DNA from: Candidatus Saccharimonadota bacterium
GTDB lineage: Bacteria; Patescibacteriota; Saccharimonadia; Saccharimonadales; DTSZ01
NCBI GenBank assembly: GCA_012965045.1
Contig: DTSZ01000001.1
Span: forward strand, 591,629-655,628
Length of the DNA: 64,000 nt
Reading direction: 5' to 3'
Under the pieces are notes generated by a model that was not told the origin of the DNA, did not search any database, and saw only the letters and a program-made list of their open reading frames with translations. Both the position numbers and the translations under genes were made by a program. Positions 4,977 to 61,952 of this stretch are shown here, in pieces; the first letter of the stretch is position 1, and each line of letters starts with the position of its first letter.

Positions 4977-5421
4977 AGAAGTACTTCTCCCTTTTTTGTT
5001 GCAGGACCACAATCTAAACTGTTGTAACGTGCTTTACCGCGTGAGGGTTTAAGCAAATACTATCCGGGCCGATTGCTCCCACAACACCTAAATGTTGTTT
5101 TCTCTCAAGGAATAAATCCTTGCAATAATTGTACGCTGATTGTGTTTGAAGGGCAAAGACGATGTTTTTACCTGAATTCAGCAAGCTGCCGTTTGCATTC
5201 ATTTCCACCATTTTGAGTGATCAAAACGGTGGAGCCAAAAGATCACCCTGTTCACATCTCTTGATATACTCACTGCTTGTTTAACAACAGCCTGTGGAAT
5301 GGCTAAAGCCAGTCTGAAAGTTATCTATAAGAGTCTCAGACACGTCCTCGGCTTAATTGTTGTTAAGCCAAGCATTCCTATTCAGGATCTGCTCAAAAGG
5401 GATTGGCGAGCGAAGCTCGCT

Positions 5422-5523
5422 GGGTCTGGGCATAAAAGACAGCTTTTCCTGATTAGATGTTGTAATTCAAATTGTGTGAACCTTAACCTGCCTACCGGCA
5501 GGCAGGCGAGTGAAGTGTGCTTC
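5422..5523 (-). repeat. Truncated copy (X1) of the structured element found complete at 49748-49923.
   Basis: Shares GGGTCTGGGCATAAA..CTTTTCCTGA, TGTTGT..TTCAAA and CGAGTGAAG(T/C)GTGCTTC with X2. Carries a 20-nt GC palindrome insert at 5487-5506. Confidence 0.6.
5487..5506. repeat. GC-rich palindromic mini-element cctgcctaccggcaggcagg, related to 2263-2281 in inverted orientation.
   Basis: About 16 of 19 positions match the reverse complement of 2263-2281. Stem CCTGCC/GGCAGG. Confidence 0.5.
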
Positions 5524-5533
5524 CCAAGAAAAC

Positions 5534-5923
5534 TTATTTTCTAGGTTTGGTAATATTCGCTTCCCCGCCATACACTGGCAAAACTACTTTTTGATTTTCG
5601 CCACTTTTAAGTTTTTCTATTCCCTGAGCAAACCAAATGTCACCTGCGGCTGCGACCACTGGAACGTCGAGCGAATAGCTTAGGGTGTTTGCAAGTGTCA
5701 CGCCAATTCTCAACCCAGTAAAACTACCCGGCCCTTCAAACGCGACTATGCCTTCAATTTGGTCAAACTTACTGTTGGCTGCGTCGAACAATTCATCAAG
5801 CTTATAAAAAATAGTGCTCGATAATTGCTTGTGGCCTTCCCATTCTACTTTTTGTATGTCATCGCCGATTTGTAGCCACAGCTCTGCTTGGGGTTTGTCT
5901 GTGCGAATTCCTAAGATATTCAT
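5534..5923 (-). CDS. tsaB: tRNA t6A biosynthesis protein TsaB, short form.
   Basis: GPGSFTGLRIGV motif. Overlaps the tsaE stop by 4 nt. Confidence 0.8.
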   Translation of the reverse strand: MNILGIRTDKPQAELWLQIGDDIQKVEWEGHKQLSSTIFYKLDELFDAANSKFDQIEGIVAFEGPGSFTGLRIGVTLANTLSYSLDVPVVAAAGDIWFAQGIEKLKSGENQKVVLPVYGGEANITKPRK

Positions 5924-21856: not shown

Positions 21857-21883
21857 GCCCAAAGTATAACAAATATACACTTT

Positions 21884-21909
21884 TTAACGATCGTAAAAAT
21901 TTGTATACT
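21884..21909. repeat. 26-bp direct repeat R1 (TTAACGATCGTAAAAATTTGTATACT) in the ruvA/PaaX-like divergent region.
   Basis: 24 of 26 positions identical to R2 at 22476-22501. Contains the ACGATCGT palindrome. Confidence 0.7.
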
Positions 21910-21915
21910 CTAATC

Positions 21916-22464
21916 ATGTCAACGCGAGCAGCAGACCAAGCCAGTGCTCAAATCCTAAAAACATGCCTTCAGCTATTAAAAGATGCTGGTGGCTTAAGCC
22001 GAGACACGTTAAAAAACACCCTCACAAAACTCGATTTTGACCTATCTAACCGTCTCGTTAATTTACGCGTAAATTCTGTAATTTTGCGGGCTCGATCATC
22101 GCAGTTTATCGAAGAAGAAAATGGTCAATTAACGGTAACCTCTGCCGGTGTACTGCAGCTACAAAAACTAATACGGATCACTGACTTTAAGTTTCTTAAA
22201 AGCCAGCCATGGGACAATAAATGGAGGCTACTAAGTTACGATGTTCCAGAAACCGAACGTCAACTTCGCAATGAACTACGTGCCCTTATTAAGCAAGCGG
22301 ACTTTACTTTATTGCAGCGAAGTCTATGGATTACGCCGTACGCCTGCGAAAAACTCTTAGAAGATTTACTAGACAACTACCCAGATTACGTACAGCTATT
22401 TATCGTCAGCTCCATTAAGGGCGACATGAATTTTAGCGCAAATTTCAAAAACTACATCGACTAA
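21916..22464 (+). CDS. PaaX-like transcriptional regulator.
   Basis: The C-terminal pattern WDNKWRLLSYDVPETERQLRNELRALIKQADFTLLQRSLWITPY matches the PaaX C-domain signature. Confidence 0.6.
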   Translation: MSTRAADQASAQILKTCLQLLKDAGGLSRDTLKNTLTKLDFDLSNRLVNLRVNSVILRARSSQFIEEENGQLTVTSAGVLQLQKLIRITDFKFLKSQPWDNKWRLLSYDVPETERQLRNELRALIKQADFTLLQRSLWITPYACEKLLEDLLDNYPDYVQLFIVSSIKGDMNFSANFKNYID

Positions 22465-22475
22465 CTATACAAAAA

Positions 22476-22501
22476 TTAACGATCGTAAAATTTTGTATAG
22501 T
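22476..22501. repeat. 26-bp direct repeat R2, embedded in a roughly 36-bp palindrome after the PaaX-like gene.
   Basis: ctatacaaaaattaacgatcgtaaaattttgtatag. Confidence 0.7.
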
Positions 22502-22543
22502 CCGAGCGCTGCACCGGTATTGATAATTCAGCGACTGGTTAAT

Positions 22544-27426: not shown

Positions 27427-27608
27427 AGGGGTGTGGTGGGACTCGCCAAAAGTATTTTTCTGGTGAAAAATCTTTTCGATCGTACTCTAGCGCCGGCGCA
27501 CTCCGGTCTTGCGAGAAGCAGACATGCATTTCTCACCCAACTGGGTTCGAGTCATTAAAACTGTCCAATTTAAAACCCGCCAAAAGGCGGGCGTTAAATT
27601 GGAGGGAC
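27427..27608 (-). repeat. Copy B (degenerate, orphan) of the tRNA-linked structured repeat, including its terminator hairpin and a tggaggga tRNA-Lys end fragment.
   Basis: Shares gtgggactcgcc, TCTTGCGA..hairpin..TTTCTCACCC, TAAAACTGTCCAATTTAAAACCCGCC...GGCGGG and AAATTGGAGGG with copy C. No tRNA is adjacent. Confidence 0.6.
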
Positions 27609-28255: not shown

Positions 28256-28441
28256 TGGAGGGTCCAGTGGGACTCGCCCACATTCTGCGGGCCCGAAACT
28301 ACGTCTTTCAAAACAAGTTTTGAAGAGTAAGTTTCCTTGCAAACTGCTCCCAGCAGTTTTCACCCCCGACACTACGTGTCGTGGCTTCGACCCAGTAAAA
28401 CTCTCCAATTTAAAAACCCGCCATTCGGCGGATTCATAAAT
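28256..28441 (-). ncRNA. Copy C of the tRNA-linked structured repeat. It starts behind the tRNA-Lys terminator and ends in an exact 21-nt copy of the tRNA-Lys 3' end (28256-28276).
   Basis: See copy A. Helix 28276-28292 again has an A-C mismatch on plus that becomes G-U on minus. Terminator hairpin ccgcc-attc-ggcgg at 28418-28431. Confidence 0.55.
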
Positions 28442-28518
28442 TGGAGGGTCCAGTGGGACTCGAACCCACGACACCCTGCTTAAAAGGCAGGTGCTCTAAC
28501 CAGCTGAGCTATGGACCC
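28442..28518 (-). tRNA. tRNA-Lys (anticodon TTT), CCA encoded.
   Basis: Hand fold: acceptor GGGTCCA/TGGACCC, anticodon loop CTTTTAA, T-arm GTGGG-TTCGAGT-CCCAC, 77 nt. Confidence 0.95.
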
Positions 28519-47295: not shown

Positions 47296-49116
47296 TTAGT
47301 CCTTTTTAAGTAACACTGTGAAAGCTTCGGGCGGTATTTCTACTTTACCGAATTTTTTCATTCGTTGTTTACCAGCTTTTTGCTTGGCCCATAATTTCTT
47401 TTTACGAGACACGTCGCCGCCGTATAAATGACCGGTAACATTTTTGCCCAAGGCTTTAATATCTTCACGAGCGAGTATTTTACTGCCAACCGCTGCTTGC
47501 AAAGCAACTTCAAATAGCTGACGCGGAATAACGTCTTTGAGTTTTTCCAACATTTTACGGCCGGTACTTTCTGCTTCTGATTTATGAGTCATAATACTTA
47601 AACTGTCCATGCGCTCACCACCTACTAAAATATCTAAACGTACTAAATCCTGGGCTCTATAATCAGCAATTTCATAGCTTAGTGTGCCGTAGCCGCTGGT
47701 AGTGCTTTTTAGTTGGTCATAAAAATCTGTTAGCACATTTGCCAGTGGTGCCTCAAAGCTTACTGTGGCTAAATGCTCGTCGACATAGCTAATATTTTTC
47801 TGGTGGCCCCGAGTTGAAACAATTAACTGCACAACATTCCCAACATAATCTACGGGTACAATAATTTCACCGCGAATCCACGGCTCACGAATTTCTGCGA
47901 TATGCGTCGGATCAGGCAGGTTGCTGGCCGAACGAATGGTTTGCTCTTCGCCACTGGCCATTACAACGTGGTAGTCGGTCGACGGATTAGTCACAATCAC
48001 CTCAACCCCTTGGTGGCGCTCAATTCGTTCTTGCACAATTTCAAGATGCAACAGACCTAAAAACCCAACCCTAAACCCAAAGCCAAGAATTTGTGAATTT
48101 TCTGGTTCATACACTAAAGCTGCATCATTTAAACTAACTTTTTCTAGTGCGTCTTTGAGGTTTGGGTAGTCGTCGGCGCTAGCTGGAAACACTCCAGCAT
48201 ACACAAATGGTATAGCTTGTTTATAGCCAGGCAAAGCCTCTGCAGTGGTTCCGTGTAATACAACTGTGTCGCCAACGCGAGCGTCGGCAACTGTTTTAAA
48301 GTTGGTAACAATATAGCCAATTTCGCCCGCCTTGAGGCTTGGTGTTGGCACTTGTTTCGGACTAAAAAAGCCAGTAATTAACGCCCGTCCGTCAGCTTTT
48401 GTGCCCAGCATGGTTATGTCGGCGTTCTTTTTAATCTCGCCAGCCACGACTTTTACATACAGCACTACACCTTGATATTCATCCAAAAACGAATCAAAAA
48501 CCAATGCTTTGGCGGTTTCGTCTTTTAGTGGTTGTGGCGGCGGAACGCGCTCAACAACAGCCTTTAAAACGGCCTCAACATTTTGGCCAGTCTTTGCGCT
48601 AATTTCTATAATTTCTTCCCGCTTGCATCCCAGTAAACTAATAACTTCTTTACTAACGCGGTCAACATCGGCCGCAGGCAAGTCTACTTTGTTTAGTACC
48701 GGAATAATCTCTAGATCTTGTTCAAGCGCTAAATACACATTCGCCAGTGTCTGAGCCTGTATACCTTGACTCGCGTCTACGACAAGGATTGCACCTTCCA
48801 CAGCTGCCAAGCTACGACTAACTTCGTAACTAAAGTCGACATGGCCGGGAGTGTCAATCAAGTTGAGTTGATACTCAATTTGATTGACGCCATCTTCCAT
48901 CTTCTTTCTTCCATCTTCCGAATGACGGTACGTCATTCTAACCGGCTGCAATTTTATGGTAATACCTTTTTCCCGCTCCAGATCCATCTGGTCAAGTAGC
49001 TGTTCTTTCATTTCACGCTTGGTAACCGTCCCAGTAATTTCCATAAGCCGATCCGCCAAGGTCGACTTACCGTGGTCAATGTGGGCAATAATGCAGAAAT
49101 TTCTAATATTTTCCAT
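47296..49116 (-). CDS. lepA: Elongation factor 4 (LepA).
   Basis: IRNFCIIAHIDHGKSTLADRL, DTPGHVDF, NKVDL and the LepA C-terminal domain. Start set at ATG 49116. Confidence 0.97.
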   Translation of the reverse strand: MENIRNFCIIAHIDHGKSTLADRLMEITGTVTKREMKEQLLDQMDLEREKGITIKLQPVRMTYRHSEDGRKKMEDGVNQIEYQLNLIDTPGHVDFSYEVSRSLAAVEGAILVVDASQGIQAQTLANVYLALEQDLEIIPVLNKVDLPAADVDRVSKEVISLLGCKREEIIEISAKTGQNVEAVLKAVVERVPPPQPLKDETAKALVFDSFLDEYQGVVLYVKVVAGEIKKNADITMLGTKADGRALITGFFSPKQVPTPSLKAGEIGYIVTNFKTVADARVGDTVVLHGTTAEALPGYKQAIPFVYAGVFPASADDYPNLKDALEKVSLNDAALVYEPENSQILGFGFRVGFLGLLHLEIVQERIERHQGVEVIVTNPSTDYHVVMASGEEQTIRSASNLPDPTHIAEIREPWIRGEIIVPVDYVGNVVQLIVSTRGHQKNISYVDEHLATVSFEAPLANVLTDFYDQLKSTTSGYGTLSYEIADYRAQDLVRLDILVGGERMDSLSIMTHKSEAESTGRKMLEKLKDVIPRQLFEVALQAAVGSKILAREDIKALGKNVTGHLYGGDVSRKKKLWAKQKAGKQRMKKFGKVEIPPEAFTVLLKKD

Positions 49117-49169
49117 GACTAGTAGTGTAACAGAGGTCATTAAATATTACTTTATAGTAGAATAAGTTC

Positions 49170-49739
49170 ATGAACAAAGATGTCGCCTTAGATTCACTAG
49201 AAGTTGTAATTGATAATTCAATAGTGAATCGAATAACTGAAAGTGAAGCCATAAAAGAACTCCCACAAATTCAGTTAGTTTTGGCTAGCTACAGAGTTTT
49301 GTCATCTTATCGCGACAAAAGATTATTAGAAAAGATTTTGGTATTACTCAATAAAACTAGCTCGCACCAAAAGGAACTTTTTGAAATTTTTGCAAAAACT
49401 CATAACCAAAACCTGTTGCTGGATTATCTCGATCAAGCTGAGGATGAATACAAAGTAAAAGTCACTGGTTCTATATTTAATAATTGGGTAACAGAAAAGC
49501 ATGATCAAAATATACTTATGAGATGCCTTGAGATTTTGCAGAATTTATCCCCAGTGGAAATACGTCAAATAATTAGTAATGATACTTTCGGAAGGTACTT
49601 AGGCGAGAAATTATGTTTGCTTGGTATTTGTACCAGAAATTCAAGAGTTGGACAGTGGGACGGCGGAGATCAAGTAGACTTTCCATTAACAAATTTTGGG
49701 AAAACATTTATCAATTTATCTAAAAATTATACTGAATAA
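49170..49739 (+). CDS. Hypothetical protein (189 aa), an AT-rich orphan.
   Basis: ORF with no motif. A hand count of the first 100 nt gives about 33% G+C, which looks lower than its neighbours by eye. Confidence 0.5.
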   Translation: MNKDVALDSLEVVIDNSIVNRITESEAIKELPQIQLVLASYRVLSSYRDKRLLEKILVLLNKTSSHQKELFEIFAKTHNQNLLLDYLDQAEDEYKVKVTGSIFNNWVTEKHDQNILMRCLEILQNLSPVEIRQIISNDTFGRYLGEKLCLLGICTRNSRVGQWDGGDQVDFPLTNFGKTFINLSKNYTE

Positions 49740-49747
49740 ATAAACTT

Positions 49748-49923
49748 GGGTCTGGGCATAAAGTGCACTTTTCCTGAGAAGGCTGTTGTTCAAAAAGATG
49801 TGGGTACCACACCGAGTGAAGCGTGCTTCATAAAGCTGCTGGGTGCAGCTTTATAGAATGCACTCTGAGCGAGAACATCTTTTTAACAACTGATTCTAAA
49901 GAAAAGTACACCCCGCCCAGTGG
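49748..49923 (-). ncRNA. Candidate roughly 175-nt rod-shaped structured RNA (X2) of unknown identity.
   Basis: Nested long-range helices are ctgggc/gcccag, gtgcacttttc/gaaaagtacac and gttgttcaaaaagatgt/acatctttttaacaac, with apical hairpin ataaagctgc-tgggt-gcagctttat. One mismatch is C-A on plus but G-U on minus. Confidence 0.45.
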
Positions 49924-49955
49924 TTTTGGCTACTTTTGGCAGCAAAAGTAGCGAC

Positions 49956-51557
49956 TTATGGTTGGTGAATCTTCAACGGCTTATAAAGCAGCTTCAAGAA
50001 TCCCTTAACAACTGGCTGGGATTCTTTAATTTTTAATAGATGACTAAAGAATACGTAACTGGCAAGAGTAACAACCACAATCACTCCAAATTTAGGTGCA
50101 AGGGCGAAAAAGCCAACATCGCCAGCTTTAAGCGGGAAAATGTAGCGAACAAAAACATAATTAACGACTGACATTCCAAACACTGCAACAAGCATTTTAG
50201 AGGTAGAAATAAAGCTTTCTTTTGTAAAAACGGTGCCGATTCGTTTGGTTAACACGATAACTAAAAACAATACCTCAAAAATGGCGACTGCAGTTTGCGC
50301 CATCGCTAGTCCAACAACGTCATACAGATTTACAAAAACGACTGCTAAACCAATGTTAAGAAGAATTGAGTACACCGAAATTTTTAAGGGGGTAGAAGTG
50401 TCTTGCTGAGCGTAAAAAGCCCGGGTAGCGGCCTGAAACAACGCACGGAAAATTATTGACAGTGTAAACCAGCCTAAAATAGAAACTATTAAGGTGTTTC
50501 CTTGGCCGACCAAAAACCGCACCAAATAACCACGCATAAAGAACGCAATGGCAGCCGCGGGGATCGACAGCCATAGCAAGACATTAAAAACTGACTCAAT
50601 GTCTTTTCTAAACAAATCGGTTCGTTTACTGGCAGCGCGGGCGCTAATTTTAGGAAAAGCCGCGGTTGAAATTGCCACGCCGATAAGCGTAATGGGCACG
50701 CTGCGCAAAACGTAGGCTGTGTTGTAAGCAGCTATCGACCCAACGACCAAAAACGACGCCAAAAAACGCTCAACAATTGAATTTAAATAGTCGATACTTT
50801 GGTCTAACGACCGTGCCGGCAATAGCTTGAGCACTTTTCTAAAGCCACGATTTCGCCAAAATATTTTGCGATCATATTTAAATCCAAGGCCGGCCAAACC
50901 AATAGTTTGAATAATAAGTTGCAATATTGCACCCAATCCCACACCAAGAGCAACACCAACAATCGCCGGATTGTCTTGCGTGCCAATTGCAGGGGCGAAC
51001 CAAACAATTCCAGTAATTATGCCGATGTTGTAAACAACGGGGGCCAGCGAGTTAAAAAAGAACCGACCAAAAGCCTGCTGCATGCTGGCAAGCACACTAC
51101 TAATAGAAAACAGGAACGGATTAACGGCAATTATTCGCATTAAGTTTGCAGCTGTGTCTTGAACCTCTTTAGGCGAGCCAGCAGCAATGAGTTTTACCAG
51201 TGGTGGTGCAAAAATAAAAATAACTATACTGGTAATTGCCGTACCAATAGCAAACAGATTCATCAAACTTGCAGAAATTTGCCAAGCAGACTCTTTGTTA
51301 CCAGTCTGCAAGCGTTGAGACAATACCGGTATCAGGGTAACGCTGAGCGCCCCAGACACCAATAAATAAAACATAAAGTCTGGTATAGAAAAGGCAATAA
51401 TGTAGGCATCGAGTGTCGGGCCCAGACCAAATTTGGCAATTAAAAGCTTTTCGCGCAACAGACCAAGTACCGCACTAACTGCAAAGCTTCCTGACAAAAT
51501 CCAGGCAGCTTTACCAACTGTTAGGGAACTATTCGCTCTGCTGATTATGTTTTTCAT
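49956..51557 (-). CDS. murJ: Lipid II flippase MurJ.
   Basis: LGLLREKLLIAKFGLGPTLDAYIIAFSIPDF and about 14 TM segments. Start set at ATG 51557. Confidence 0.85.
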   Translation of the reverse strand: MKNIISRANSSLTVGKAAWILSGSFAVSAVLGLLREKLLIAKFGLGPTLDAYIIAFSIPDFMFYLLVSGALSVTLIPVLSQRLQTGNKESAWQISASLMNLFAIGTAITSIVIFIFAPPLVKLIAAGSPKEVQDTAANLMRIIAVNPFLFSISSVLASMQQAFGRFFFNSLAPVVYNIGIITGIVWFAPAIGTQDNPAIVGVALGVGLGAILQLIIQTIGLAGLGFKYDRKIFWRNRGFRKVLKLLPARSLDQSIDYLNSIVERFLASFLVVGSIAAYNTAYVLRSVPITLIGVAISTAAFPKISARAASKRTDLFRKDIESVFNVLLWLSIPAAAIAFFMRGYLVRFLVGQGNTLIVSILGWFTLSIIFRALFQAATRAFYAQQDTSTPLKISVYSILLNIGLAVVFVNLYDVVGLAMAQTAVAIFEVLFLVIVLTKRIGTVFTKESFISTSKMLVAVFGMSVVNYVFVRYIFPLKAGDVGFFALAPKFGVIVVVTLASYVFFSHLLKIKESQPVVKGFLKLLYKPLKIHQP

Positions 51558-51698
51558 CGTTACTACTAGTATCGCACCCCAAATCAAATCAAACCAGTCA
51601 AAAACCGCCAAACGCATATGCACACGAACAAACAGCAAACATGCTCTATAGCCCGCCACACAGCCAAAATTATTTTAAAACTATTTTTTATCTATTTT

Positions 51699-51720
51699 AA
51701 AATTATTTTAAAATAATTTT
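51699..51720. promoter_or_regulatory. Perfect 22-bp AT palindrome in the murJ upstream region, with a half-site repeat at 51666-51680.
   Basis: aaaattattttaaaataatttt equals its own reverse complement. Confidence 0.4.
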
Positions 51721-51774
51721 TTCATAATAGGGCAGTAGAGCACTTTACTGCCGTATTAGTCCTAAGCTCTAAGC

Positions 51775-60764: not shown

Positions 60765-61952
60765 ATGAACAGTAAACTAGAACAAAAAATGAAGCGAAAC
60801 CTGAAACTGCTGTATATTTTGCGAGCCATACGGTCATTTGGTGTGTTTGCTCCTGTAATTGTTCTGTTCTTTCAAGAAAACGGGCTTAGCCAGACCGAAG
60901 TGTTTGCGCTGCAGTCTATCTTTGCAGCAGCGATCGTACTGCTAGAGGTGCCGAGCGGCTACTTCGCAGATGTCTTTGGGCGCCGAATAAGCGTGGTGCT
61001 TGGAGGACTGTTTACTGCACTTGGTTTTGGAGGTTACGCGCTAGCGAGTGGCTTTGCGCAATTTTTGCCGATGGAAATACTTATCGGAATTGGCCTCAGT
61101 TTCCTAAGTGGAGCAGACCAAGCACTAGCCAGAGATAGTTTGATCGCTTTGAGCCGCGAGAGCTACTACCGCAAGTTTGAATCCAGAGCGCACGAGCTGA
61201 GTAGCTGGTCATCTGCTCTAGCAGCACTTACCGGCGGCTTTATTGCTCTTATTAGCCTGCAATCGGTTATTGTTGCTCAAGCAATTGTTACAGCTTTGTT
61301 AGTTCCGTTTAGTCTACTCATTATCGAGCCTCCTCGGACAAAGCCAACCGGCAAGAATCCGTGGAAGCAAGTCAAAAAGATAGTTCGATATAGTCTGCGC
61401 GAGCACCAACAGCTGAAGTGGCTCATCGCCTATGGAGCGGTGGTTACTACACTCACACACACTATGTTTTGGCTTACTCAGCCACTGTTTGAGCAAGTCG
61501 GAGTACCCCTTGGCTGGTTTGGAGCGCTGACAGCCTTGTTGTTTGTTAGCCAAGGCCTCTCTGCCAAAGTAAGCATTTGGTATGAACAAAAGCTTGGCAA
61601 ACGACGGGCCCTGAAGAGCTTTGTACTTATAGGCACAGTTAGCTACGTGCTGATTGGAGCGTTCACTCTAGTGTGGATGCTGCCTGTACTACTGGGCTTT
61701 CAGTTCATACGTGGCGCTGCCATGCCAGTCATGAGCGACTATGTTCATGAACATGTTGAGTCTGATATTCGAGCTACGGTGATGAGTGTTAATAGCTTAG
61801 CTAGTAAGCTTTTCTATACCTTCGCCGGCCCTGTTGTTGGTTTGGTTGTAGACAACTACTCGCTCAGTGCCGGTTTATGGTTTTCCGCTTTACTTTACGG
61901 TACCCTTGGTTGGTTCGTGTTGTCACGAATGAACCGCAATGGTGACCTTTGA
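60765..61952 (+). CDS. MFS transporter.
   Basis: 12 TM segments and a G.FADVFGRR motif in loop 2-3. AAGGAG RBS. Confidence 0.85.
   Translation: MNSKLEQKMKRNLKLLYILRAIRSFGVFAPVIVLFFQENGLSQTEVFALQSIFAAAIVLLEVPSGYFADVFGRRISVVLGGLFTALGFGGYALASGFAQFLPMEILIGIGLSFLSGADQALARDSLIALSRESYYRKFESRAHELSSWSSALAALTGGFIALISLQSVIVAQAIVTALLVPFSLLIIEPPRTKPTGKNPWKQVKKIVRYSLREHQQLKWLIAYGAVVTTLTHTMFWLTQPLFEQVGVPLGWFGALTALLFVSQGLSAKVSIWYEQKLGKRRALKSFVLIGTVSYVLIGAFTLVWMLPVLLGFQFIRGAAMPVMSDYVHEHVESDIRATVMSVNSLASKLFYTFAGPVVGLVVDNYSLSAGLWFSALLYGTLGWFVLSRMNRNGDL

Follow-up and report, generated by a model that had tools for sequence, protein, structure and literature searches.

The segment at 49748-49923 is a 176-bp imperfect palindrome that folds into a strong rod, is non-coding, recurs as a half-length copy at 5422-5523 and lies, like that copy, in DNA inserted at a gene junction that is tight in relatives. 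It matches no Rfam family and nothing in the relatives' loci that we searched, which points to a small repeat or terminator hairpin rather than to a new conserved regulatory RNA. Our preferred reading, which we hold tentatively, is a lineage-restricted palindromic intergenic repeat of the MITE, REP or ERIC kind that, as a transcribed hairpin, could serve as a bidirectional terminator or insulator. The analysis covers a 64,000-nt stretch of genomic DNA (the window) from a Candidatus Saccharibacteria (Saccharimonadales) metagenome-assembled genome, which belongs to the CPR, as a preliminary description of the stretch had implied.

Architecture of the palindrome and its half-copy

The full element, here called the rod, and the half-copy comprise the following parts:

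49748-49923, folding on both strands: the full element, a 176-bp imperfect palindrome with a GC content of 46.6% and a paired core at 49752-49920
49752-49757 (CTGGGC) with 49915-49920 (GCCCAG): closing helix of the rod
49763-49773 (GTGCACTTTTC) with 49901-49911 (GAAAAGTACAC): 11-bp helix of the rod
49792-49801 (AAAAAGATGT) with 49875-49884 (ACATCTTTTT): inner helix of the rod
49830-49854: apical 10-bp hairpin, ATAAAGCTGC (49830-49839) with GCAGCTTTAT (49845-49854), loop TGGGT
49748-49829, plus strand: left arm (L-module), the part common to the half-copy
49855-49923, plus strand: right arm, corresponding to the left arm in inverted and diverged form
49929-49952: separate 10-bp hairpin, GCTACTTTTG / CAAAAGTAGC, located after the rod and before the stop codon of murJ (49956-49958)
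5422-5523, plus strand: half-copy (L-module only), ~100 nt resembling the plus-strand left half of the rod
5422-5436: shared block GGGTCTGGGCATAAA, exact over 15 nt
5443-5452: shared block CTTTTCCTGA, exact over 10 nt
5458-5463: shared block TGTTGT, exact over 6 nt
5507-5523: shared block CGAGTGAAGYGTGCTTC, identical at 16 of 17 nt

The nested helices, the ctgggc/gcccag closure and the 10-bp apical hairpin that had been picked out by eye are all present, forming a strong rod of ~176 nt downstream of murJ, and the sole mismatch of the 11-bp helix is indeed C-A on the plus strand and G.U on the minus strand. In a DNA-level self-comparison the two arms are 69% complementary over 159 nt, while a three-way alignment of the left arm (L1), the reverse-complemented right arm (R1rc) and the half-copy (L2) identifies the right arm as an inverted version of the left that is missing the GAAG-YGTG-CTTC piece of block D. 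The left arm carries four blocks (GGGTCTGGGCATAAA, CTTTTCCTGA, TGTTGT and CGAGTGAAGCGTGCTTC, A to D), together with a small local hairpin, GTGG-GTA-CCAC, at 49800-49810. Stop codons bound the rod on both sides, that of the plus-strand ORF 49170-49739 on one and that of the minus-strand murJ on the other, and on the plus strand a tract TGGTTTTGG (49921-49929) joins it to the small hairpin at 49929-49952. The rod and half-copy loci are 100% identical in independent assemblies from JGI, ENA and Logan (the genome is recorded as JGI 3300001678 Mariner_1000006, as a 929,678-bp ENA scaffold and as an NCBI TPA entry), so the rod is no assembly artefact; every other assembly of the organism is likewise identical at both loci, and we thus found no strain variation.

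Both strands of the rod fold better than their shuffled counterparts: the plus strand reaches -68.6 kcal/mol (z -4.75) and the minus strand -74.0 kcal/mol (z -7.25), with 0 of 200 shuffles as good in either case. The minimum free energy (MFE) structure of the minus strand has a closing stem of ~42 bp, an asymmetric central loop (49856-49874 opposite 49797-49829) and an apical stem of 17 bp. A GC-corrected sliding fold scan (180 nt) across all 64 kb places the rod third on each strand, below only two loci, each consisting of a tRNA plus a module.

The tRNA-linked modules are a separate observation. On the minus strand, the segment after tRNA-Pro (2475-2551) occupies 2286-2474 and that after tRNA-Lys (28442-28518) occupies 28256-28441; in both, a terminator-like hairpin comes first and the ~165-nt module second, and the module ends in an exact 21-nt copy of its own tRNA's 3' end with the CCA. 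It consists of an incomplete tRNA copy (nt 47-55 and 57-77 in the case of tRNA-Pro) with a structured, conserved insert of ~87 nt in the T-loop, and the Pro and Lys inserts adopt a common fold in which 13 of the 41 pairs have changed on both sides and are still paired. The modules have no match in Rfam or among viral contigs and are absent at nine other tRNAs examined, including the relatives' tRNA-Pro and tRNA-Lys. A third, degenerate module lies on the minus strand at about 27430-27600 (nhmmer E 7.6e-5), bracketed by tRNA-Lys 3'-end pieces (CCCTCCA ... CGAGTCCCAC); the first tRNA-Lys module lies ~650 nt upstream of it, beyond a small ORF, and the arrangement looks like the product of serial insertions at one tRNA. 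The modules, whose inserts do covary, look more interesting than the rod. Two further structured sites were seen in the window. At 21871-21910 and 22463-22502 there are two copies of a 40-nt palindromic motif (ATATACA...TTAACGATCGTAAAA...TGTATA), 83% identical and 592 nt apart, which may be paired protein-binding sites; and a strong fold (z about -3.7 in the GC-corrected scan) lies on the plus strand at 61531-61800, inside an MFS-like ORF (60765-61952).

The half-copy holds the four blocks of the left arm in the same order. Within the 64-kb window it is recovered by nhmmer with an E value of 3.6e-4, and its Smith-Waterman score of 34.5 is the highest of 2118 windows (background mean 11.0, sd 2.2), which bears out the recurrence of ~100 nt of the rod's left half at 5422-5523. 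A 20-nt GC hairpin at 5487-5506, CCTGCCTACCGGCAGGCAGG, comes in addition, and 10 nt separate the end of the half-copy from the stop codon of tsaB (5534-5536). No partner arm was found downstream of it, in keeping with its earlier description as truncated, and upstream the only trace is a weak reverse-complement match over 27 nt, at 5267-5293 (E about 0.1). A circularly permuted second copy, with the partners of blocks B and C at 5250-5421, was rejected: this single 27-nt match is all that it can draw on, block A has no partner, and in the MFE structure the upstream AACAAC pairs locally. A module of ~85 nt is thus present in three copies, L1, the inverted R1 and L2, with similar divergence among them. 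When the left arm, the inverted right arm and the second copy were combined into a profile, no further module was detected in the 64-kb window or in ~19 kb of its own flanks, so that ~83 kb of genome contains one full and one half copy.

Comparison of the two copies by RNAalifold returned no self-contained conserved fold of the left arm: on the minus strand only a 4-bp GAAG/CUUC hairpin in block D is predicted, on the plus strand scattered invariant pairs, and in no pair is there a compensatory change or other covariation between the copies. The element is also non-coding. The ORFs that cross it encode only 25-42 aa, and a 1-nt indel between blocks A and B puts them in different frames in the two copies; a protein search with the composite and small ORFs, which would catch copies called as genes, gave no match. 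The possibility that the element is a small protein was discarded on the same grounds, the frames not being conserved between the copies.

Inserted DNA around both copies

The features that define the surroundings of the two copies are:

47296-49140, minus strand: lepA
49141-49955: inserted block of 815 bp between murJ and lepA, holding the plus-strand ORFan 49170-49739, the rod and the small hairpin 49929-49952
49170-49739, plus strand: ORFan of 189 aa, GC 32.8%, with its stop codon 8 nt before the rod
49956-51659, minus strand: murJ (Pfam MurJ, E 5e-76)
5013-5533: tsaB-rny spacer of 520 nt, which houses the half-copy

Relatives share a conserved tilS-ftsH-(mazG)-murJ-lepA gene row. The gap between murJ and lepA is 27 nt in one of them (L150), the two genes overlap by 4 nt in two others (L151 and L152), and in a fourth (L002) an MFS gene in opposite orientation occupies the junction; the rod is absent at murJ-lepA in all four. 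The C-terminus of MurJ aligns with that of the relatives up to the last residues and is native, so the insertion begins directly after murJ. At the other locus, the tsaE-tsaB-rny order is conserved in relatives, where the tsaB-rny spacer is mostly ~90-170 nt and reaches ~370 nt in one case (L040), which puts the spacer here at three to five times the length found in most of them. It folds with z -3.0 on the plus strand and -4.0 on the minus strand, contains no gene called in the ENA annotation (including at the 65-aa ORF 5014-5211), and might serve as an extended leader of rny. A genomic island with the two direct copies, 44 kb apart (full and 3'-half), as attL and attR was rejected, since tsaE-tsaB-rny and murJ-lepA are each syntenic in relatives across what would be the boundaries. 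Similarly set aside were a common origin of the ORFan and the DNA upstream of the second copy, which show no similarity; an L-module acting as a shared promoter for rny and lepA, there being no common -35/-10; derivation of the rod from the murJ 3' end, whose score of 19 (3 of 500 shuffles) falls within the window's empirical background, where some ten random places do as well; and a Tn3-type inverted repeat, for which, compared by eye with the Tn3 repeat, only the first 8 nt (GGGTCTG) are alike and the right end has no counterpart.

The murJ ORF as called starts at a GTG that lies 34 codons before the conserved start M35; the relatives' MurJ begins MK(N/K), and the first 34 residues of the called ORF are probably untranslated. 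The short spacer just upstream of murJ contains AT-rich direct and inverted repeats (51666-51728), with AAAATTATTTTAAAAYWATTTT present twice and overlapping palindromes. These repeats overlap promoter-like hexamers on both strands, and the segment may be an operator or promoter region.

The gene beside the rod is, as first described, an AT-rich orphan, with 32.8% GC compared with 46.6% for the rod, 43.8% for the spacer of the second copy and 43.0% for the window. The rod thus has a genome-like GC content, unlike the ORFan, which suggests that it is resident sequence rather than cargo of the AT-rich gene. The ORFan is all-helical, runs opposite to murJ and lepA and is a real but rare protein: a search of 5.8e9 proteins retrieves only itself, its remote homologues are one protein (P0122) at 35% identity (E 4e-19) and eight weaker ones, and together these form a rare family of ~200-aa proteins (P0122-P0130). 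No match was found in Pfam, PHROGs, PADLOC or the PDB, and a single-sequence AlphaFold model (pLDDT 46.5) is unusable for the fold. The P0122 gene lies just downstream of a family-A DNA polymerase gene, with no palindrome downstream at the P0122 loci.

The position of the rod, a long imperfect palindrome 8 nt after a promoterless-looking ORF within a unit inserted against the direction of an operon, could suggest a cis-acting DNA site of an ORFan cassette, either an attC-like site recombined as a folded single strand or the single-strand origin hairpin of a small mobile replicon; a strand-biased fold would suit a single-strand substrate. We regard this as very improbable. No integrase, Rep or relaxase is encoded near the rod, searches of phage and plasmid sequences by BLAST gave no match to the element, its GC content departs from that of the ORFan, the closest homologue of the ORFan has no such palindrome, and the second copy is not beside an ORF of the ORFan kind. 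The ends of the rod are also unlike the attC R''/R' consensus, and its 176 bp exceed known attC sites.

Insertion at both junctions is equally what would be expected if the palindrome were a functionless by-product, a local inverted duplication made when illegitimate recombination introduced the ORFan, with 5422-5523 as an older template or a relic. The modest complementarity of the arms, comparable to the divergence between L1 and L2, and the failure to find relatives or covariation fit this explanation as well. Against it, the helices are kept well enough for a z-score of -7.25, mismatched positions tend to G.U on one strand, the copies still have long blocks in exact agreement while the spacers have diverged, and compact CPR genomes, this one being about 0.93 Mb, rarely retain useless DNA. 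We consider a by-product unlikely.

Strand preference and the search for an RNA family

The preliminary description had read the helix mismatch as a sign of a minus-sense RNA. The data lean slightly that way: the minus fold contains 8 G.U pairs and the plus fold 3, and the minus structure, when mirrored onto the plus strand, is ~6 kcal/mol weaker. With 11 informative pairs the preference is only a hint, and the bias in G.U pairs and energy favours the minus strand without being decisive. A consensus match scan found no sigma-70-like promoter adjoining either copy on either strand.

Sequences resembling terminators do accompany the hairpins. On the plus strand, the base of the rod (GCCCAG) is directly followed by UGGUUUUGG. 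On the minus strand, the first copy has an internal GC hairpin, GGUGUGGUACCCACAUC, followed by UUUUUG and flagged as terminator-like by the scan, while the rod as a whole has a U-rich tail, with a 7-nt spacer before UUUAUUUAUU; the second copy shows, at the same module position as the hairpin of the first, another GC hairpin, which is longer and is followed by UUAAGGUU. In the simple scan used, whose loop limits the whole rod exceeds, terminator-like sites are not enriched genome-wide (19 found against 19.0 expected), and given this lack of enrichment the terminator role can only be inferred.

The suggestion of a conserved structured RNA of the 6S type found no support in the searches. At gathering thresholds, Rfam 15 reports three tRNAs alone in the 64-kb window, with neither 6S nor SRP nor any other family; in E-value mode (E<=10), 501 nt and 191 nt around the rod and the locus of the second copy gave nothing relevant, and 6S was not listed. 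HEARO and related Rfam families have no match, and ARAGORN detects no tmRNA. The pattern formed by blocks A and B had one chance match, in a coding region of Cytophagales, among GTDB species genomes and 0 among JGI metagenome contigs, and blocks A, D and A'+B had chance matches in viral contigs, with no extended similarity. By nhmmer, blastn and a covariance model of the rod, no homologue was found in ~570 kb made up of 80 rny loci, several murJ loci and the window with its flanks, the covariance model finding itself alone. Among 5.8 billion proteins, no homologue of MurJ or RNase Y comes nearer than 65-70% identity, which marks the lineage as isolated, and conservation or covariation in relatives was nowhere seen as far as these searches reach, the nearest sequenced relatives being ~65% identical in MurJ and RNase Y. 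Full-text searches of a paper library returned no work on MITEs or 6S RNA for Saccharibacteria or Patescibacteria, and no 6S or comparable global regulator for Saccharibacteria.

These results weigh on the alternative that the element is a lineage-specific regulatory sRNA of the minus strand, expressed from its own gene or from the murJ 3' UTR and perhaps acting as a 6S-like decoy of RNA polymerase, with 5422-5523 as a decayed or specialised paralogue. Such an RNA would account for the very stable minus fold, for the excess of G.U pairs and the extra cost of the same structure on the plus strand, and for the orientation of both copies, which lie downstream of minus-strand genes and point the same way as those genes; the 176-nt length and the predicted layout resemble 6S, and the exactly conserved blocks could be protein-binding motifs. 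It is harder to reconcile with the failure of 6S and every other Rfam model, even at E<=10 on 191 nt, with the minus strand having no promoter-like site upstream, and with a shared half that shows neither covariation nor a self-contained fold and that in the second copy has no partner arm. Moreover, one would expect a housekeeping RNA like 6S to occur in relatives too and to lie outside inserted DNA, and this element is absent from the syntenic site and from the 570 kb searched, which comprise relatives' loci and the genome's own flanks. What keeps the sRNA in consideration, as an unlikely explanation, is the strand bias together with the very low z-score and the exact blocks. A more far-reaching version is that the rod is a genuine minus-strand CPR RNA, either a highly divergent 6S-type decoy or a new protein-binding RNA with the blocks GGGUCUGGGCAUAAA and CGAGUGAAGYGUGCUUC (as plus-strand sequence) and a reusable module also found upstream of rny, or that, together with the tRNA-linked modules, it represents a class of small, structured mobile insertions in Saccharibacteria that is so far undescribed; this we consider improbable.

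The proposed palindromic intergenic repeat and its relation to known systems

The reading of the element as a lineage-restricted palindromic repeat draws on the palindrome extending over the whole length, the three module copies, the non-coding state, the inserted loci, the genome-like GC content and the lack of a promoter. Lineage-specific structured insertions at tRNA-Pro and tRNA-Lys further suggest that small non-coding insertions are a trait of this genome. Some observations pull in the other direction: selection on motifs, rather than decay, could explain why exact blocks of 15 and 17 nt stand next to spacers that have diverged, the better minus fold hints at selection at the RNA level, and ~83 kb hold just one full and one half copy, with no target-site duplication and no transposase or parent IS seen. 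The element is, in short, an unclassified intergenic palindromic repeat or hairpin of a familiar kind, with a putative function.

We propose that one ancestral module of ~85 nt is represented by an inverted pair, the rod, and by the solo copy at 5422-5523, both in DNA that the lineage recently added at the murJ/lepA and tsaB/rny junctions, which are tight in relatives. The full copy lies between convergent genes, the inserted ORFan on the plus strand and murJ on the minus strand, where a transcript entering from either gene would form an interrupted hairpin ~80 bp long. A hairpin on either transcript, with UGGUUUUGG on the plus strand and the U-rich tail and UUUUUG on the minus strand, makes a bidirectional terminator or insulator the most likely effect, and the occurrence of a GC hairpin with U-rich sequence at the same module position in the first and second copies speaks for such a role. 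The hairpin could also protect 3' ends, and the outcome would be that the intruding, opposite-oriented ORFan is kept apart from the ftsH-mazG-murJ-lepA operon.

If the palindromic repeat is the correct reading, the element itself matters little, as one more unclassified palindromic repeat to be catalogued, and the case would illustrate how a reduced CPR genome can tolerate a foreign, opposite-oriented gene in a conserved operon by way of a strong flanking hairpin. Were a discrete RNA to be shown, it would matter more, since a family confined to one lineage would offer a tractable entry point. A strong fold and a single paralogue are not sufficient by themselves, and the tRNA-linked modules, with their compensatory changes, are the better lead.

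The neighbours of the rod, MurJ, LepA and the ORFan, have no DEDD, RuvC or nuclease domains, unlike the partners of the IS110 bridge RNA and of the omega RNA or reRNA of IscB and TnpB, and no recombinase, reverse transcriptase, transposase or nuclease is present among the neighbour proteins of the rod and half-copy that were scanned, which applies equally to a retron RNA and its reverse transcriptase. Integron attC sites carry R''/R' core sites (RYYYAAC ... GTTRRRY), measure 57-141 bp and lie at the 3' end of a cassette ORF. The position of the rod after an ORF fits this description, while its ends (AAACTTGGG... ...CCCAGTGGTTTTGG) are off consensus and its length is 176 bp.

The resemblance to 6S RNA (RF00013) is one of size and outline: 176 nt, a predicted rod in which an asymmetric central loop separates the closing stem from the apical stem-loop, and a 3' side of the central loop that can form a small hairpin. 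This outline comes from the minus-strand MFE structure of a single sequence, and any long imperfect palindrome looks similar. The element differs from 6S in having no covariance-model score, no promoter and no counterpart in relatives, in lying in inserted DNA, in possessing a half-length paralogue and in having nothing that links it to RNA polymerase. With bidirectional intrinsic terminators it shares a location between convergent ORFs and a GC-closed stem followed by U-rich sequence on both strands; it departs from them in its ~80-bp stem with several internal loops, as opposed to the usual 7-20 bp, and in its imperfect U-tracts (UGGUUUUGG on the plus strand, the 7-nt spacer before UUUAUUUAUU on the minus strand).

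The closest likeness is to palindromic repeats such as ERIC/IRU, REP/BIME, RUP, Correia and MITE-like elements. Compared with these, the rod is unusual in amounting to 1.5 copies in ~83 kb, in having neither target-site duplication nor parent IS and in showing no similarity to described families; no direct repeat brackets 49748-49923 (flanks ...AATAAACTT / TGGTTTTGG), and decay could erase a short one. As in a MITE, terminal inverted repeats mark the ends (CTGGGC...GCCCAG and GTGCACTTTTC...GAAAAGTACAC) and there is no coding capacity. Intergenic palindromic repeats often serve as terminators or mRNA stabilisers. Like them, the element is non-coding, falls in the ~100-200 bp range, is an imperfect palindrome over nearly its full length, lies between genes (here convergent ones), would give a long hairpin whichever strand is transcribed, is present more than once, with one copy partial, and is absent from the orthologous sites of relatives.
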